A DNA stretch of 20,000 nt, from IMG/VR virus record IMGVR_UViG_3300022917_000009; one strand, written 5' to 3'. Every line of letters begins with the position of its first letter. Position 1 is the stretch's first letter. The notes beneath the pieces were generated by a model that made no database searches, had not been told where the DNA came from, and saw only the letters and a list, made by a program, of their open reading frames with translations. The DNA comes from an uncultured virus (IMG/VR IMGVR_UViG_3300022917_000009) (Duplodnaviria; Heunggongvirae; Uroviricota; Caudoviricetes). A program made the position numbers and the translations under genes. This document shows positions 3,002-12,904 of the stretch, piece by piece.

Positions 3002-3217
3002 ATGGCAGACAACAAGACCAAGCGAGCCCCGACGGTAAGCGCGCGGGAGTTCGCGGCGAGTCACGGAGTCCACGTCAAGACCGTGCATGCCGCGTGCCGG
3101 GCCGGGCTGCTGAAGTTCAAGAAGGACGCGCTCGGGTTTTATCGCATCCCCGACGGGCCGAAAAACAGGGCGGCGTTCGCGAAGCGCCCGGCGCCGGGAA
3201 GGAAGCGGGGGAAGTGA
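3002..3217 (+). CDS. Excisionase/MerR-like helix-turn-helix DNA-binding protein (HTH_17-like)
   Basis: VSAREFAASHGVHVKTVHAACRAGLL...GFYRIP winged-HTH pattern; basic tail; AAGGAG RBS. Confidence 0.8.
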   Translation: MADNKTKRAPTVSAREFAASHGVHVKTVHAACRAGLLKFKKDALGFYRIPDGPKNRAAFAKRPAPGRKRGK

Positions 3218-5274: not shown

Positions 5275-5712
5275 ATGATCGTTTCTAAGTTTGAGCACGC
5301 AGGATTGCAGTGCATTATCCGCCCCGGTGGATTTGAAGGATTTTGCGGATATGTTGCCGTCCCCGAGGGACATCCCCTCCACGGTGTGGATTATGGTGCG
5401 GAGTGCGCGGCGTTGGCCGAGGCGCACAAGCTGGCGCTTCAGGGGCCAGTCGGGAAGCGTGGCGTGATGACTCTCTTTCGCGGCGATGTGGCGTGCCCGG
5501 AAACAGTCTTCAACGTGCACGGTTCTCTTACGTTTTCGGGCGCATTCCGCCGGGAGCCGGAACTCGACCCGTCCCTTTGGTGGTTCGGGTTTGACACGGC
5601 GCACGCCAATGATGGTCCGAGCGTACAGAACGTCGAGTACGTCACCGAGGAATGCAAGAGCCTCGCGGACCAGATCGCAGCGCTCTTCCCGCAACCGGTG
5701 GCCGCCCCATGA
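5275..5712 (+). CDS. Conserved phage protein (CGYV...HP...VHG-LT...WWFGFD-AH family)
   Basis: Motifs CGYVAVPEGHPLHG, VHGSLTFS, WWFGFDTAH, YVTEECKSLADQI are typical of a widespread phage family; GGAGG RBS. Confidence 0.85.
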   Translation: MIVSKFEHAGLQCIIRPGGFEGFCGYVAVPEGHPLHGVDYGAECAALAEAHKLALQGPVGKRGVMTLFRGDVACPETVFNVHGSLTFSGAFRREPELDPSLWWFGFDTAHANDGPSVQNVEYVTEECKSLADQIAALFPQPVAAP

Positions 5713-5903
5713 CCGAGCGCCAGAAGGTAATCGCCAGCATCGCGGGGCAACTATTCGCCGATTGGGCATCCAAAAACACGGACCACAACGGCGTCCTGTC
5801 CATCGAAGCTTCAACCAGATTGGGCAACGCCGCGATTGAAGTGGCGAAGTCTCTCGTCATCGCCGCCGAGGCCATCCCGGACCCGAGGGAGAGGGAGAAA
5901 TGA
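5709..5903 (+). CDS. Hypothetical protein
   Basis: ATGA coupling at both ends. Confidence 0.7.
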   Translation: MTERQKVIASIAGQLFADWASKNTDHNGVLSIEASTRLGNAAIEVAKSLVIAAEAIPDPREREK

Positions 5904-6325
5904 AGACGACGGACCATGGACTGCATGAAAAGATGATGGAAGGATGCGAACACGCAGTCACGGAAATGCATGGCGCCAGCTTGTACGACCTAGCCGCGTG
6001 GGTCGCTGAGATTTCTGACGTGCCCGTCTCCGCTGCTGGCGCAATCACGGCGTCATCCATGATACTGGCGTGGCTGGCATCGCGTGGAATCATGGTGGGG
6101 GATTGTCCGCCAGCATCTCAAGACACCTCAGGGCGTCGATTTCGGAAACAGGGGAGGCGCCTGCCGAGTGAGCGATTTGATGACGTGCGATTCTGCGAAA
6201 GGGTAACTTGCCTAAAACCTGTACCATCGTCCCGGCGCCGCAGCGGGTTATCTGCGGCCCCGAAAGGGACACCTGAAAGAGGAGCGAGAACGTGGGGCTT
6301 GACATTCGGTACTACACGAAACTGA
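5900..6325 (+). CDS. Hypothetical protein; C-terminal half may be read-through into non-coding DNA
   Basis: GGGAG RBS, ATGA start; after about 6120 the translation is Arg/Ser/Pro-rich and overlaps the next gene by 34 nt. Confidence 0.5.
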   Translation: MKTTDHGLHEKMMEGCEHAVTEMHGASLYDLAAWVAEISDVPVSAAGAITASSMILAWLASRGIMVGDCPPASQDTSGRRFRKQGRRLPSERFDDVRFCERVTCLKPVPSSRRRSGLSAAPKGTPERGARTWGLTFGTTRN

Positions 6326-6819
6326 AGGACATCGGCAATGCACCCGCTGATGGGGGATATGGCGACGGGCAGATCGTCTTCTACGACAACGAATACTTCC
6401 CGGGCCGGATCGCGCCGTGGAAAGACACCATCCTTTACTCGTACGATTGCAGCGAAGACCGAGAGGAACGCCACTTCCGATGCGGGTACACGAGCTATTC
6501 GGTGATGCGAAACAAGCTCGCCAAGCTCGCCGGGTACACTGCGACAGAATCGAAGGAACCGATGGCTACATTCCTCTACTCCAACGGCGTCTATGCTTCG
6601 GAGTGCGGCCCGCTCTTCGAACTGCTCAACTTCAGCGATTGCGAGGGGACAATCGGCGCCGACGCATGCAAGAAGATGGTCCCGGAATTTGAAGAACTTT
6701 GGCCGCAGATCGAAGCAGAGCACGTTGATGGGCCGTTCGACCACTTCAGGACATTCTGCGAGTATCTTCGCCGAGCACTGAAGGCTGGCGCAGATAAAGG
6801 AGCGATTCGGTTTTCGTAA
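6292..6819 (+). CDS. Conserved phage hypothetical protein (MGLD... / NFSDCEG type)
   Basis: GAGGAG RBS; MGLDI start; motifs RNKLAKLAGY and ELLNFSDCEGTIG. Confidence 0.85.
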   Translation: MGLDIRYYTKLKDIGNAPADGGYGDGQIVFYDNEYFPGRIAPWKDTILYSYDCSEDREERHFRCGYTSYSVMRNKLAKLAGYTATESKEPMATFLYSNGVYASECGPLFELLNFSDCEGTIGADACKKMVPEFEELWPQIEAEHVDGPFDHFRTFCEYLRRALKAGADKGAIRFS

Positions 6820-6837
6820 GCACGCGCGGTCGCCGAG

Positions 6838-7282
6838 GCCGCGCTGCACTGTGCCTCCTTGGGAATAACCTCTTCGAGCCGTGGCAATCTCGGCGGCTGA
6901 AGGCAAGGCTCCCCAAGGGGCACAGTGGAGCGCAGCGAAGGCTCCAACACTCTTGAAAGGCATGCTGTCCGAGATCAAGCGTAGGGCGGGGGATGGGTTG
7001 GGATGCCCTCCCCCCGCAGAACTCTCCGCCACGCCGCGTTGCAGTATGCTCCTTGCAGATCGTCGCCGATTCGCCGAGGAGCAGACTGGAGCGCAGCCAA
7101 ACTCCACCACTCTTTGAAAGGAAAACCGCAGTGGGTATCGAAGGTGATATGTCAGGTCACGTCAGTTAGCGCGCGGGCACCGATTAGGCCGTATCTCATG
7201 CGATTGAACAACGCTGGTACGCAGGTCGGCTGCTTTGCATCGCGCCCTCGGAACACAGGCCGAGGTCGCGGTAGGAAGCAGC
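6838..7282 (+). ncRNA. Putative structured RNA array: three related long hairpins (6838-6936, 7033-7097, 7229-7282)
   Basis: Homologous arms (gccgcgctgcactgtgcc / gccgcgttgcagtatgc / gctgctttgcatcgcgcc; 3' arms end in gcagc), G.G mismatch at pair 9 in all three, compensatory changes, variable apices. Confidence 0.6.
6926..7121 (+). repeat. Two 35-nt imperfect direct repeats (6926-6960, 7087-7121): hairpin plus boxA-like motif
   Basis: tggagcgcagcgaaggctccaacactcttgaaagg versus tggagcgcagccaaactccaccactctttgaaagg. Confidence 0.8.
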
Positions 7283-7310
7283 AGGGCAAAATCAAACAAG
7301 GAATAAGAAC

Positions 7311-7658
7311 ATGGAAAACGCAGAGAAGAACCCGGAATTTCTGCCCAACCTCGGCGCCATCGCAGTTGGGATTCCGAAGGCTCCGGACAAGCCGGAACCC
7401 ATCCCCGCTTCCGACGACGAAGCCAGCATGAACACCCTGCGCTACGCCAAGAGCGTCGCCGCGGATGAGCGGCGCAAGGCGTACAAGGCGCTCGACAAGG
7501 CCCTCGATGCTTACGGCGCCGAGGTCGACGGGAAGACCGCTGGTGCCCTCTGGACGTCGCTACAAGCTCGCGGGGAAGAGTACGCTGAGAAGGTGCGCAT
7601 CGAGGGACTGGCTCGCCGCGCAGTGACCGTGCGCGTTGCGGCGAAGGCGAAGAAGTGA
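7311..7658 (+). CDS. Hypothetical helical protein
   Basis: AAGGA RBS; GTGATG coupling downstream. Confidence 0.8.
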   Translation: MENAEKNPEFLPNLGAIAVGIPKAPDKPEPIPASDDEASMNTLRYAKSVAADERRKAYKALDKALDAYGAEVDGKTAGALWTSLQARGEEYAEKVRIEGLARRAVTVRVAAKAKK

Positions 7659-8908
7659 TGGCAACTCCCCGCGAAGTATACGAGCACGGGCTGGCTAAGG
7701 CGCAGATGATCGCTGTTCTTACTGCGGGGCATCAGGCCGCGTCCAATCAACACGGAAACGCTGAACTGTATATGGCATGGGCCGACAAGAACGCTTCCAA
7801 GATCATGGAGGTGAACGGCGTGGGCGAGCCCTTCCCCGGCGATCCTACGGTGTTTGGCGTTGATGTCTCCAACGGCCCGGACTGGACGGTCGTGCACACC
7901 ATACAACGCCCGTCAGCGCCGTGGAACACAACAGACGAAGCCCTCCCCGGTACTGGCGCCCTTGTGGAGTTCGAAGTGCGAGGCACAAACGCTGGAATCC
8001 ATTTCGGTCAGTACTACAACTGCAACCGCCTCCCATGGGTGGACAACAAGAAGCAGCAGTTATTTGCCGATTCCCAAATCGTGCGCTGGCGCATGGCCGA
8101 TGGCGCCGAGTGGTCGGAGTACAATACGGGTGGTGGGCGTCAGTCGCTCCAGCAGTCCGTCTCCGCGCAGGCCGACGCGAGGGCGCGGCTCCTTCTACGC
8201 GAGTGCCTTCTCAGGATGCAGGGAGACTTGTCGTTGGCGAGCCTCGAAGGGGAGGTGAAGGACTTCCTGCGCCAGACGACGGACGCGCCGGTCGCGGTCA
8301 CTCCCGAATCATCTTCGATTGTGGCGCACAGCCTAATGCGGTGTGCCGAATGGTTCGCCAAGCGCGCCCAAGACGGGGATACGTCAACATCGTTGCAGCT
8401 AAAGCGGCTAGCGGAGAAGGCGCGAGTGGTTGCGGATGCGCCGGTCGCGAAAGAGGAGAAGGCGCAAGCATCGGTGGCTGCCGCTATCGGGAACCTCACC
8501 ATGACTCTTGCCGGTGGCGACTGGCGTGTGGCTGCTCCGGGCACTGAACGTGCTTACTCCCCGCAATGGAAGGAGGCTCTTCGTCAGGCGCGCAACGAGG
8601 GTGGGCGACTCGGCCATAATTGCGTGGCGTCTCTTCACTTGCTCCTTGGTATTATCAAGACCGGATACCAGTTTCCCGGAGTGAACGTGATCGCGATGAG
8701 GGCCGCAGCAGAGCTTGCGTCAGAACCGAACATCGGACCCACCGTGGGCATCTTCCCGCACACGCCCGAAACGAAGTCGATTATCAGATCGGCGCAAGTG
8801 CTTGCCGCGGCTGATGGCAGTCCTCAGTTCGAAGTGAACCACCTTGTCCGCGCTCTTCGATGCGTCGAGTCTGACGCCAAGAAGATCATGGAGAAATACC
8901 ATGCCTAA
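7655..8908 (+). CDS. Mosaic protein: DUF551-like segment plus C-terminal Clp N-terminal (Clp repeat) domain, no ATPase
   Basis: WNTTDEALP...IVRWR is DUF551-like; YSPQWKEALRQARNEGGRLGHNCVASLHLLLGII and HTPETKSIIRSAQVLA...EVNHLVRAL resemble the two ClpA/B/C N-domain repeats. Confidence 0.75.
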   Translation: MMATPREVYEHGLAKAQMIAVLTAGHQAASNQHGNAELYMAWADKNASKIMEVNGVGEPFPGDPTVFGVDVSNGPDWTVVHTIQRPSAPWNTTDEALPGTGALVEFEVRGTNAGIHFGQYYNCNRLPWVDNKKQQLFADSQIVRWRMADGAEWSEYNTGGGRQSLQQSVSAQADARARLLLRECLLRMQGDLSLASLEGEVKDFLRQTTDAPVAVTPESSSIVAHSLMRCAEWFAKRAQDGDTSTSLQLKRLAEKARVVADAPVAKEEKAQASVAAAIGNLTMTLAGGDWRVAAPGTERAYSPQWKEALRQARNEGGRLGHNCVASLHLLLGIIKTGYQFPGVNVIAMRAAAELASEPNIGPTVGIFPHTPETKSIIRSAQVLAAADGSPQFEVNHLVRALRCVESDAKKIMEKYHA

Positions 8909-10141: not shown

Positions 10142-10696
10142 ATGAGTAGCTACGGAAGTGGCAGTTACGCGAACGACCCGGACGCCGAGATGGACCTCAG
10201 CAAGTACGAAGCCTACGGTGCCGAGTTGCCCGTTGGCGAGTACGTTTGCACCATCCAGTCTGCGGTTCCCGGCACGTCGAAGAACGGAGGCCGTATTATG
10301 GGCGTCACCTTTCAGGACACCGTGAGCGGCGGCACCAAGAAGAAGGATTACGCCCTCAGCGACAAGGCCATGGGGTACTTCGTCGGTATGGTTCAGGCCG
10401 CTGGCTTCGACACCAAGCAGCCCGGGTTCAAGCCTTCGTCCCTCGTCGGCGCCAAGATCAAGATCATCATCGCGCACCAGCAGGACAACCCGCAGTACAC
10501 CGAAGTCAAAGGCACCTTCAAGTGGGATGCCCCGACCATGCTCCGCGCCACGCCCGCCCCGGCACCGAAGAGGCCCGTCGATCCGTCCACGCCCGAAGGT
10601 CAGCAGCCCCGTCGCCCGGTTGAACACCGCGCCGAGCAACTCGACATCACCGACGGCCCGCCCGTCACCGGTACCGAAGACGACTTGCCATTCTGA
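10142..10696 (+). CDS. Phage single-stranded DNA-binding protein, DUF669-like
   Basis: LPVGEYVCTIQSA...SKNG N-terminus, Pro-rich linker, acidic SSB-type C-terminus EDDLPF; TAAGGAG RBS; next to RecE/RecT. Confidence 0.8.
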   Translation: MSSYGSGSYANDPDAEMDLSKYEAYGAELPVGEYVCTIQSAVPGTSKNGGRIMGVTFQDTVSGGTKKKDYALSDKAMGYFVGMVQAAGFDTKQPGFKPSSLVGAKIKIIIAHQQDNPQYTEVKGTFKWDAPTMLRATPAPAPKRPVDPSTPEGQQPRRPVEHRAEQLDITDGPPVTGTEDDLPF

Positions 10697-11553
10697 TGCC
10701 CGAGCCCAATGACATCTCACTCGACGACCTGCCCGACGACACCCGGTACGGGGCGTACTACAATCTCCCCGTCGCCGAATATGACGCAGCACCGGCGCTT
10801 CGCAGTACGTCCATCCGACTGCTGATGAAGTCTCCGGCGCACTATCTGGCGAACCATCGCGTCGAGACCGAGGCGATGAAGACGGGGAGCCTTGTCCATG
10901 CGGCGATGCTGGAGCCGGAAGTCTTCGGCTCCCGCTACATGGTCATGGAGAAGGTAGACCGCCGGTACAAGGAAGGTAAGGTGAAGTACGAGGACGCATT
11001 GCGACAGGCTCAGGAACAGAAATTGATCCTGATAAATGAGGCGGACCAACGGCAGGTGTTCGGAATTCGCGCGTCGCTCTTGGGCCACAAGCGAATCTCA
11101 AAGCTCCTCACTCAGGCCAAGCGCGAGGTGTCGTTGTTCTGGAATGAGGAGGACGTTTCCTGCAAGGCGCGCATCGACATTCTGCCCGTCATCGACAACA
11201 CCATCGTTGATCTGAAGACGACCGAGGACGCGCAGCCCAAGCCATTCATGCGGTCAGTGTATCGGTACGGCTACAACTTCCAAGCCGGTCACTACTGCCG
11301 CGGCGGGGAGCGAATCTTGGGGATGGAGCGCCCGGACTTCCTGCTTGTAGCAATCGAGAAGGAACCGCCCTACGCCGTCGCCATGTACACACTCCCCCGA
11401 TCCATCATCGAAGAGGGTTGGCGACAATGCGCCGCGGCGATGGAAGTTTACCGCAAGTGCCTCGCAACGAAGGAGTGGCCCGGGTATACCGAGGAGACCC
11501 TTGAACTTCACGACTGGAAAACCGCCAAGGAGGCGATGAAAGATGAGCAGTGA
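10696..11553 (+). CDS. recE: RecE/exonuclease VIII-like PD-(D/E)XK nuclease (DUF3799-like)
   Basis: SPAHY, GSLVHAAMLEP, EVSLFW, CKARID, IVDLKTT, YNFQAGHY, FLLVAIEKEPPY motifs. Confidence 0.9.
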   Translation: MPEPNDISLDDLPDDTRYGAYYNLPVAEYDAAPALRSTSIRLLMKSPAHYLANHRVETEAMKTGSLVHAAMLEPEVFGSRYMVMEKVDRRYKEGKVKYEDALRQAQEQKLILINEADQRQVFGIRASLLGHKRISKLLTQAKREVSLFWNEEDVSCKARIDILPVIDNTIVDLKTTEDAQPKPFMRSVYRYGYNFQAGHYCRGGERILGMERPDFLLVAIEKEPPYAVAMYTLPRSIIEEGWRQCAAAMEVYRKCLATKEWPGYTEETLELHDWKTAKEAMKDEQ

Positions 11554-12469
11554 ACTCGTAAAGTCCGGTGAAAGCCTGCCGGAATTCCGTGGCCTTCAGC
11601 CGCGCACGTTCTCCGAAATCATGGAGTTCGCCGATGTCCTATCGAAGTCCACCATCGTCCCGGAGGCATACCGCGGCCAGCCCGCGAACATCCTGCTAGC
11701 GATGCAGATGGGTTCCGAGGTCGGCCTCTCGCCGATGCAGTCCTTGACGAACGTGTACATCATCGACGGCAAGCCTTCGCTATCGACCGATGCCATGCTC
11801 GCCGTTGCCAAGTCATCGGTGCATTGGGACCCTGCCGGATTCGACGTGAAGTACGAGGGCACCGGCGACAATCGCAAGTGCATCGTCACCGTCCAGCGCA
11901 AGGGCGAGAAGGCGCAGCGTGGGGAGTTCGTCACCTCGACGGCGCGTGCCGCAGGCAAGATGTCCAATCCGAAGAGTAACTGGTCACTGTACCCCGACGA
12001 CATGCTCCGCGCTCGCGCCATGGGCCGCGCCCTAAAGATGGCGTTCCCGGCGGAAATCAAGGGGTTCAAGAGTCGCGAGGAGGCCGAAGATTCTGTGATC
12101 GAAACCGATGCCGTGCCCGTGCGCCAGTCTCTCGACTCCCGCATCGACGCCACGCCCGTTGCTCCCCTCGCGACCCCGGCACCGGCGGTCGTGCAGGTCG
12201 TTGTATCGGAGGCTCTCGACGATACCGGGCTGACGAAGGAAGAGAAGTTGTCCGCGCTCGACAAGCTGGCCCACGCGAACGCCGTCGAGAAGGGCACCGA
12301 GTACGCCGAGGAACTGGCCGCGCTTCTGCGATACGAGACTGGCAAGCCAGACAAGCCCGTCTTCGAGGTCGCATCGTTGGACTATTTCCGCGAGGGTGAC
12401 GCGAAGGAGAACGCCAAGCGGGTGAAGCTCCTGTACCTGATCTACAAGAAGGCGTGCCTTATCTCGTAG
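11543..12469 (+). CDS. recT: RecT-like single-strand annealing protein
   Basis: IVPEAYRGQPANILLAMQMGSEVGLSPMQSLTNVYIIDGKPSL and W-x-x-YPDDMLRARA...AFP; follows RecE-like gene; GGAGG RBS. Confidence 0.8.
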   Translation: MSSELVKSGESLPEFRGLQPRTFSEIMEFADVLSKSTIVPEAYRGQPANILLAMQMGSEVGLSPMQSLTNVYIIDGKPSLSTDAMLAVAKSSVHWDPAGFDVKYEGTGDNRKCIVTVQRKGEKAQRGEFVTSTARAAGKMSNPKSNWSLYPDDMLRARAMGRALKMAFPAEIKGFKSREEAEDSVIETDAVPVRQSLDSRIDATPVAPLATPAPAVVQVVVSEALDDTGLTKEEKLSALDKLAHANAVEKGTEYAEELAALLRYETGKPDKPVFEVASLDYFREGDAKENAKRVKLLYLIYKKACLIS

Positions 12470-12498: not shown

Positions 12499-12539
12499 CC
12501 GGCGCATCGCTTGGAGAGGGTGCGCCGGATATTTATTTT
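12499..12539 (+). terminator. Probable Rho-independent terminator
   Basis: CCGGCGCATC...GGTGCGCCGG stem followed by ATATTTATTTT. Confidence 0.7.
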
Positions 12540-12540
12540 C

Positions 12541-12590
12541 AATCCGCTAGCGAATTGTCTTGACCCGCGCTAGCGAATCTCGCGGAGTGA
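12541..12590 (+). promoter_or_regulatory. Putative promoter with two palindromic operators
   Basis: CGCTAGCG(AAT) at 12545-12555 and 12568-12578 flank TTGACC at 12560-12565; no consensus -10. Confidence 0.65.
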
Positions 12591-12610
12591 CCGCGCAAAG
12601 GAGATCGACG

Positions 12611-12904
12611 ATGGCAAAGCCGAAGAACGGAGTAGCGATGCCGAACTTGGGCATCAGAGTCCCGGCGGAGGTGAAGGCCGCGGCGGAAGAGGACACCGAT
12701 GGGGCGCGTGCAGCCTTGGTTACGTGGAACTACAAGACCAAGTGCGCTAACTGTGGGAAGGCGAAAGGCGACCATCTTGCCGGGATCATGAGTTGCCCGG
12801 TTGGATGCAAGAATCGCGTTCACGGATACAGTACTTACCACAAATGTCAAACATTCCAGCCAAAGCAGCCGAAGGGCACCGCGAAGGGAAAGGGGCAGTT
12901 ATGA
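12611..12904 (+). CDS. Ribbon-helix-helix (Arc-like) regulator fused to Cys/His Zn-binding domain
   Basis: AAGGAG RBS; PNLGIRVPAEVKAAAEE beta-strand/helix pattern; CANCG...H...CP...C. Confidence 0.65.
   Translation: MAKPKNGVAMPNLGIRVPAEVKAAAEEDTDGARAALVTWNYKTKCANCGKAKGDHLAGIMSCPVGCKNRVHGYSTYHKCQTFQPKQPKGTAKGKGQL

Follow-up and report, generated by a model that had tools for sequence, protein, structure and literature searches.

The window analysed here is a stretch of 20,000 nucleotides of phage-like DNA from an uncultured virus. A single contig of 34,948 nt from a leaf-litter run, of which the window is the last 20 kb, contains it without a single difference; since this run may be the source of the window, the agreement does not count as separate evidence. 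Its listed genes all lie head to tail on the plus strand, and coordinates refer to that strand unless the minus strand is named. The features under study occupy a gap of about 491 nt (6820-7310) between an unnamed upstream gene (6292-6819), which belongs to a widespread family with identities of 30-43%, and a downstream gene (7311-7658). The latter encodes an orphan protein of 115 aa without relatives, which is not N-like and has at most three arginines per 12 residues. Three long hairpins were found in the gap. The first (copy 1, 6838-6936, inverted repeat I1) begins 18 nt 3' of the stop of the upstream gene; its stem of 24 pairs contains the mismatches C.A and G.G and carries a folded top of 45 nt. 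The second (copy 2, 7033-7097, inverted repeat I4) has the same register, the same two mismatches and a short top. Each of them is followed by a tail. The tail of copy 1 (6937-6960) consists of a linker, CTCCA, a boxA-like 12-mer (6948-6959) and GAAAGG (6955-6960), and that of copy 2 (7098-7121) has the boxA-like 12-mer at 7108-7119, overlapping GAAAGG at 7116-7121. The third hairpin (7229-7282) is looser, has neither CTCCA nor a boxA-like tail, and is followed by a purine-rich leader in which AAGGA (7298-7302) lies 8 nt 5' of the ATG at 7311. A G+C-rich hairpin between the copies (6986-7017) is without a U tract, and no terminator was found there.

A consensus scan of 6200-7700 returned no sigma-70 promoter and no intrinsic terminator. 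Promoter-like sites were recognised by eye at 2952 and 12560, each 3' of a terminator-like hairpin, and the module is about 3.9 kb from the nearest of them. These two sites would therefore place the gap in the middle of a single transcription unit of about 9.5 kb. Both junctions (2858-2992 and 12499-12604) show the order of a T-tract hairpin, an A+T-rich stretch, TTGACC and then AAGGAG, and their -10 regions were not TATAAT-like. A direct repeat, CGCTAGCGAAT, flanks the TTGACC of the second junction and is likely an operator. Small ORFs follow AAGGAG at both junctions; the product of that at 3002 is helix-turn-helix-like by a weak match, and that at 12611 is ribbon-helix-helix-like by eye.

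The preliminary description had placed the site upstream of an operon ending in genes for SSB, RecE and RecT. The genes for RecE (10696-11553) and RecT (11543-12469) were confirmed, whereas the name SSB for the product of 10142-10696 was not borne out. This protein has an acidic 'DDLPF' end and matched no Pfam, PHROGs or NCBIfam family, nor any family in the four libraries searched; its PDB matches were three, all weak, to proteins named SAKe. In the 417-aa protein encoded at 7655-8908, a Clp_N repeat domain forms the C-terminal part (Pfam E 0.009; structure neighbours with TM 0.83) and the ATPase part is absent; the protein may act on host Clp proteases as an adaptor or a decoy. The hints on the host were two weak matches of RecT to entries named Myxococcota, and neighbours of the Clp_N domain that were mostly unnamed, followed by Planctomycetota and Verrucomicrobiota.

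Extent and conservation of the duplicated module

A repeat of 35 nt had been described at 6926-6960 and 7087-7121, and both 35-mers were found at these coordinates with a spacing of 161 nt. The repeat is real, yet it covers no more than the 3' half of a larger unit (6838-6960 and 7033-7121), of which the 5' arms are homologous too. In alignments of copy against copy, the z values were 6.8 for the 5' arms, 6.0 for the 3' arms and 6.7 for the tails, and none of 1000 shuffles scored as well. The hairpin tops (z -0.6) and the DNA 3' of the tails (z 0.1) had no likeness between the copies. The module thus runs from GCCGCG to GAAAGG and is laid out as an irregular hairpin of 24 positions with a free top, followed by CTCCA and a tail. 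Identity was about 80% in stems and tail alike, and the similarity ended exactly at GAAAGG.

The stability of the folds was evaluated against shuffled sequences. No other 120-nt segment of the window was as stable as copy 1, and the z value of this copy (6820-6965) was -3.5 on the plus strand and -5.2 on the minus strand, which folds better. Copy 2 (z -2.4 on the plus strand and -0.9 on the minus strand) and the third hairpin (z -3.7 on the plus strand) folded better on the plus strand than on the minus strand. A model was then built from the two copies. Apart from the copies themselves, its best plus-strand match was the third hairpin, with the register unchanged (10.5 bits, E 0.09), and the alignment of this hairpin to copy 2 gave a z value of 2.2.

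The pairing between the arms was compared at the 24 shared positions. Sixteen were invariant pairs, two were invariant mismatches (C.A and G.G) and one was broken; the pair-keeping changes were three one-sided and two two-sided, such that five of the six differing positions still pair. The copies had 22 and 21 of the 24 positions paired. When the same nine substitutions were placed at random in a simulation, equal pair retention was reached with P 0.0004-0.036, and with P 0.002-0.085 when the register-dependent top pair was left out. A shuffle control on the pairing, with two sequences as its input, gave 58 of 500 and 130 of 500 and was not significant. The evidence for selection on the fold is moderate, and the module is real and probably functional. 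The module might instead be a functionless relic in which one hairpin was duplicated and both copies decay, as the equal divergence of stems and tail, the lack of a gene behind copy 1 and the lack of any homologue found would suggest. However, pairing was retained beyond the expectation for random substitution while loop and spacer lost all likeness, and a relic is considered very unlikely.

A fourth long, irregular hairpin (1169-1256) fills the gap 5' of the GTG at 1288, with AAGGA and AAGGAG on its 3' side. Its z value was -1.8, with 9 of 200 shuffles as good, and it matched the two-copy model with 10.2 bits (E 0.11). On the minus strand, the word CTCCAACATCTT (1153-1164) lies 3' of this hairpin, is one base short of the module tail and overlaps the end of the ORF at 994-1170; the pattern that finds it was fitted after it had been sighted.

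No homologue of the module was obtained in the viral, metagenome and genome scans, in DNA BLAST or in searches with the two-copy model. In viral contigs, strict patterns gave no match and loose patterns gave 7, 18 and at least 120, and among the matches listed none folds into the stem of the window. In metagenomes, the first pattern gave none; a two-arm pattern, which covers copy-2-like spacing only, gave at least 119, and among the matches listed none had the tail and all were inside stop-free frames of at least 59 codons. The two-copy-model matches in 80 of these matches (at least 119) were explained by the search pattern itself. The only match in genomes was antisense within an ORF of 698 aa read as DNA ligase, and phage and plasmid sequences searched by BLAST contained no more than short, weak matches. 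With the two-copy model, no convincing match emerged from sets of 96 loci, 81 loci and 101 Chloroflexota genomes, and the flanking proteins used as queries returned no loci. The module was absent from 80 recT loci, which were only 32-43% alike. Rfam covariance models gave no match up to an E value of 10 in 5500-8000 and none at the gathering score across the window, ARAGORN called no tRNA gene in the window, and a literature search by text, as distinct from sequence, found no description of the element.

The sharp borders of similarity raise the question of a palindromic repeat or recombination module acting at the DNA level, PeSL- or REP-like, which would mark gene swaps and in which RNA folding would be secondary. 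The inverted tail-like word just behind the fourth hairpin (1164-1153, minus strand) can be counted in its favour, with the limit that its pattern was fitted after sighting, and GAGCGCAGCGA recurs in a palindromic repeat of another locus (L107). Repeated regulatory cassettes also shuffle genes in T4-type phages, as the available text of PMC2839356 describes. On the other side, G-U wobbles of the plus strand take part in three of the changes that keep pairing, no promoter or terminator of the PeSL kind was found in 6200-7700, and no copy elsewhere came out of the collections searched, while the fourth site gave only the weak match described above. Such a DNA-level role is therefore judged highly improbable. 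The repeat at L107:1530-1690, which we take to be REP-like, starts with GTAG and contains GGAGCGCAGCGA; it has 14 bases in common with copy 1 and a different layout.

Two further candidates were rejected. A CRISPR-like repeat was discarded on the spacer of 126 nt and the lack of an Rfam match, and a tRNA-like end was discarded on the occurrence of CTCCACCA in copy 2 only. The words CTCTCCGCCA (7023-7032) and CTCCACCA (7102-7109) presumably resemble tRNA 3' ends; copy 1 has ACA for CCA.

Alternative pairing of the 3' arm

In both copies, the TGGAGC strand of the short hairpin doubles as the 3' arm of the long hairpin, as the preliminary description had pointed out. The short hairpin of copy 1 (TGGAGC/GCTCCA, 6926-6946) formed only without the 5' arm, and that of copy 2 (TGGAG/CTCCA, 7087-7106) had a pairing probability of 0.77-0.9 without it. 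In the intact module, the probability was 0.0 for both copies. Fragments without the 5' arm gave values of 0.77-1.0 in five of six cases. For copy 1, the value was 1.0 in the fragments 6850-6985 and 6927-6985, and 0.0 if the fragment included the 5' arm of copy 2, with which the arm of copy 1 paired instead. The two folds are thus mutually exclusive as nested structures, as had been claimed, but the claimed competition at equilibrium is not upheld by these values. Because the short hairpin is absent from the intact module and present only after removal of the 5' arm, it would be a post-cleavage fold and not an equilibrium switch. The short hairpins alone were no more stable than shuffles (z -1.0 for copy 1 and +0.4 for copy 2). 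Moreover, a complement to the arm of five bases occurs in 9% of random 14-nt segments and one of six bases in 2.5%; hence the short hairpin may be due to chance.

The modules were also considered as the starts of two small non-coding RNAs, of about 118 and 150 nt, or as cis-acting switches of the H-type pseudoknot kind that are held by a protein or ligand, in which TGGAG would leave YTGCA, with which it pairs imperfectly, for its perfect match CTCCA. The presence of three stems in about 491 nt with no convincing gene between them agrees with both forms. In the pseudoknot, GCCGCG/CGCAGC and TGGAG/CTCCA would abut without a linker and the third loop would be 4-5 nt in both copies, which is sterically tidy, and the G.G and C.A mismatches are invariant. 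However, the swap costs +4.3 kcal/mol in copy 1 and +1.8 kcal/mol in copy 2 before any pseudoknot penalty is added. The DNA 3' of the tails was neither conserved nor more structured than shuffles, and no Rfam family was found in the window. Antisense targeting by the tails was rejected, as their targets in the window were no better than those of shuffled queries (as good in 8 of 25 and 5 of 25). Small RNAs or switches of this kind are accordingly held to be unlikely. A related possibility is that the stems are cut in series to give two small RNAs, each with a hairpin gated by cleavage (or a pseudoknot stabilised by a factor), and the resulting decoy array is decidedly unlikely. Equally so is its proposed action, in which an exposed CUCCA-CACUCUU-GAAAGG box would titrate a host factor, e.g., NusB/NusE or the ribosome.

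The boxA-like tail and the leader reading

The tails had been read as tandem nut-like sites, at which NusB/NusE on the boxA-like word would allow RNA polymerase to read through into recE-recT. According to the available parts of the sources, the boxA forms are UGCUCUUUAACA in E. coli and AUGAUCUUUGAAA in B. subtilis (PMC13753749) and GYTCTTTAANA in gamma-proteobacteria (10.1101/091223). NusB contacts are extensive at G2, C5 and U6, and the change G2U inhibits antitermination (PMC3177189, text in part). G2 is present in the E. coli, gamma-proteobacterial and Aquifex forms in the passages available (PMC13753749, 10.1101/091223, PMC3177189). With the register taken from the text of PMC13753749, position 2 is A in both copies in the window (6949 and 7109). 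The core C5-U6-U7-U8 with a purine is present in copy 2, where TCTTTGAAA equals the core of the B. subtilis consensus as the available text of PMC13753749 gives it; copy 1 is one U short and has a purine at position 8. This core pattern was matched once in the window, by copy 2, against 0.13 expected, and in 22 of 200 shuffles. A pattern that requires G and allows one mismatch was matched once against 1.18 expected, and copy 1 fits neither pattern. Among 13 boxA candidates chosen by eye from 18 Chloroflexota leaders, 12 had G2 and none had A; this is a general check, since the phylum may not be that of the host, which might have a boxA variant of its own.

Several features agree with a nut-like site. 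The hairpin precedes the word as in rrn leaders (PMC8632103, in the part available), and the purine at 8 of copy 1 occurs in lambda and the G9 of copy 2 in Aquifex (PMC3177189, in the part available). Words of the true boxA type, GYTCTTTRAAC in a shared context, were observed on three other recT loci (L032:242, L033:239 and L042:147) and are probably real lambdoid nut sites. However, nut sites are promoter-proximal and depend on an N protein that carries an arginine-rich motif, according to the available text of PMC8632103, and the module is a mid-operon site without a promoter- or terminator-like site in 6200-7700. No N-like gene was found in the window, where the product of 7311-7658 lacks an arginine-rich motif and none of 40 ORFs matched an antiterminator family. 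The order of a lambdoid nut site was not found either: the hairpin is 5' of the word and the DNA 3' of it is not conserved. Furthermore, the shared sequence continues to GG and ends there. Antitermination at these tails was not supported and is quite unlikely. The cited paper, in the part available, covers only G2U, whereas the change seen here, G2A, is a transition (PMC3177189); boxA function is for this reason rated as unlikely and no lower. TTGAAA as a -35 box was rejected, with no conserved -10 region.

The end of the tail was examined as part of a ribosome-binding leader. GAAAGG occurs 14 times on the plus strand of the window, and six of these occurrences are 7-11 nt 5' of listed gene starts. 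Judged from sequence, it is an ordinary Shine-Dalgarno word of the phage. In copy 1, an ATG at 6962 is only 1 nt past GAAAGG, no start codon is at a usable distance, and the ORF of 51 codons (6962-7117) scored like off-frame DNA, below 99% of real segments. In copy 2, a GTG start 9 nt past GAAAGG opens an ORF of 12 codons (7131-7169), and 7% of real segments score as low. Two of the three leaders are consequently without a clear gene, since the ORF of copy 1 is not gene-like and copy 2 has the 12-codon frame only.

The tail of copy 2 was 92.6% identical over 27 bases (E 0.08) to the start of gp12 in the T7-like Sphaerotilus phage vB_SnaP-R1 (MN844877.1). At that start, GAAAGG is kept 8 nt 5' of the ATG and CTCTTT is changed to CTTTTT; on the plus strand of that phage, eight of nine TGAAAGG words precede annotated starts by 8-9 nt. 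No long hairpin is present 5' of this look-alike, and the match is thus regarded as analogy and not homology, at best convergent. The next gap of the same phage (L366:1927-1978) contains a long, near-perfect and unannotated hairpin (z -4.3), after which come TGAAAGGAG and the gp13 start, and this hairpin is likely an RNase III site by its sequence. On the 80 recT loci, YTTGAAAGG was 5' of an ORF start in one of five plus-strand cases, which does not support the leader reading. On the best reading, the likeness to boxA is a by-product of a U-rich leader that runs into GAAAGG.

Possible RNase III processing and comparison with known systems

[quoted passage not shown] The T7 early precursor has five RNase III signals, and the distal box of the enzyme is not conserved across species (PMC3867540, in the part available). 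In the cspA RNA of S. aureus, a cut by RNase III leaves a short stabilising 5' hairpin, as the part of PMC3386247 at hand states. As in T7-type signals, the stem of each copy in the window lies between genes, on the strand that is transcribed, and has about 22 pairs. A ribosome-binding site of a gene 3' was found for the third stem, whereas copy 2 is followed by the 12-codon ORF and copy 1 by no usable start. The preferences of the E. coli RNase III boxes, with the register taken from the available text of PMC1540722, were matched at three to four of six positions in each copy. Summed over the two copies, the score was 7 of 12, reached by two registers alike, and stems made by shuffling scored as well with P 0.20. 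One of the tied registers would leave the short hairpin flush with the new downstream 5' ends, at 6927 and 7088, and the other would destroy that hairpin; this coincidence carries little weight.

The preliminary description had linked the tail to the long hairpin and to possible cleavage by RNase III, and this fits the evidence at the level of sequence and fold. There is about an even chance that the module is an intercistronic processing-and-restart cassette, in which RNase III stems of the T7 type are combined with leaders whose genes were shrunk or lost. Such an early-operon cassette would be present in two full copies and one looser form. On the strand that is transcribed, each copy folds into a stem roughly two helical turns long, the pairing of which was kept during divergence. 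Host RNase III would then cut this stem near its middle, in the way it does at the five T7 early-precursor signals. After the 5' arm has been cut off or degraded, the freed TGGAG is predicted to pair with CTCCA, forming a 5' hairpin on the downstream RNA that would be protective. The G-poor tail would serve as the leader and GAAAGG as the Shine-Dalgarno site. A likeness that stops exactly at GAAAGG is expected of a leader to which different genes were joined. In copies 1 and 2, these genes would have been lost or cut to the 12-codon frame, and the third copy may still serve the gene for the 115-aa protein.

If this processing cassette is real, the module would add an uncultured soil phage, unrelated to T7, to the cases of T7-style message punctuation. 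It would have an additional property, in that the cut strand carries its own replacement partner; cleavage would therefore cap the downstream RNA with a hairpin. Its weight would be greater if the pieces between the stems are stable small RNAs. For annotation, the module is of use and also a caution, as U-rich leaders ending in GAAAGG mimic boxA.

The module was compared with four known systems, as described in the available parts of the sources. PeSL cassettes of T4-type phages are likewise repeated small stem-loop cassettes, situated among non-essential early genes (PMC2839356). They combine a sigma-70 promoter with a terminator, neither of which was found in the module (6200-7700) (PMC2839356). 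The rrn boxB-boxA and nut regions share with it the order in which a CUCUU(U)GAAA word comes after a hairpin (PMC8632103, PMC3177189, PMC13753749, 10.1101/091223). The module differs from them in that it has no G2, copy 1 is one U short, the nearest promoter-like site is far, there is no downstream boxB, and no N-like protein was found (PMC8632103).

The module most likely works like the intercistronic signals of T7. Both are long, imperfect hairpins of the mRNA strand in a gap of an early operon, with a Shine-Dalgarno-type word at most about 20 nt 3' (PMC3867540). In contrast to the T7 signals in the available account (PMC3867540), the module places three stems in a single gap without a clear gene separating them, its stems are G+C-rich and fit the E. 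coli proximal and distal boxes weakly, and it has a built-in alternative hairpin; cleavage is here a prediction. The phage itself is of the RecE/RecT type, and no T7-like gene was seen in the window. The 5' UTR of cspA resembles the module in that a long hairpin is cut to leave a shorter 5' hairpin, which in cspA stabilises the RNA and improves translation (PMC3386247). However, the cspA element is a single 5' UTR of a host gene, whereas the module is tandem and intercistronic, and its short hairpin would be formed with a new downstream partner (PMC3386247).
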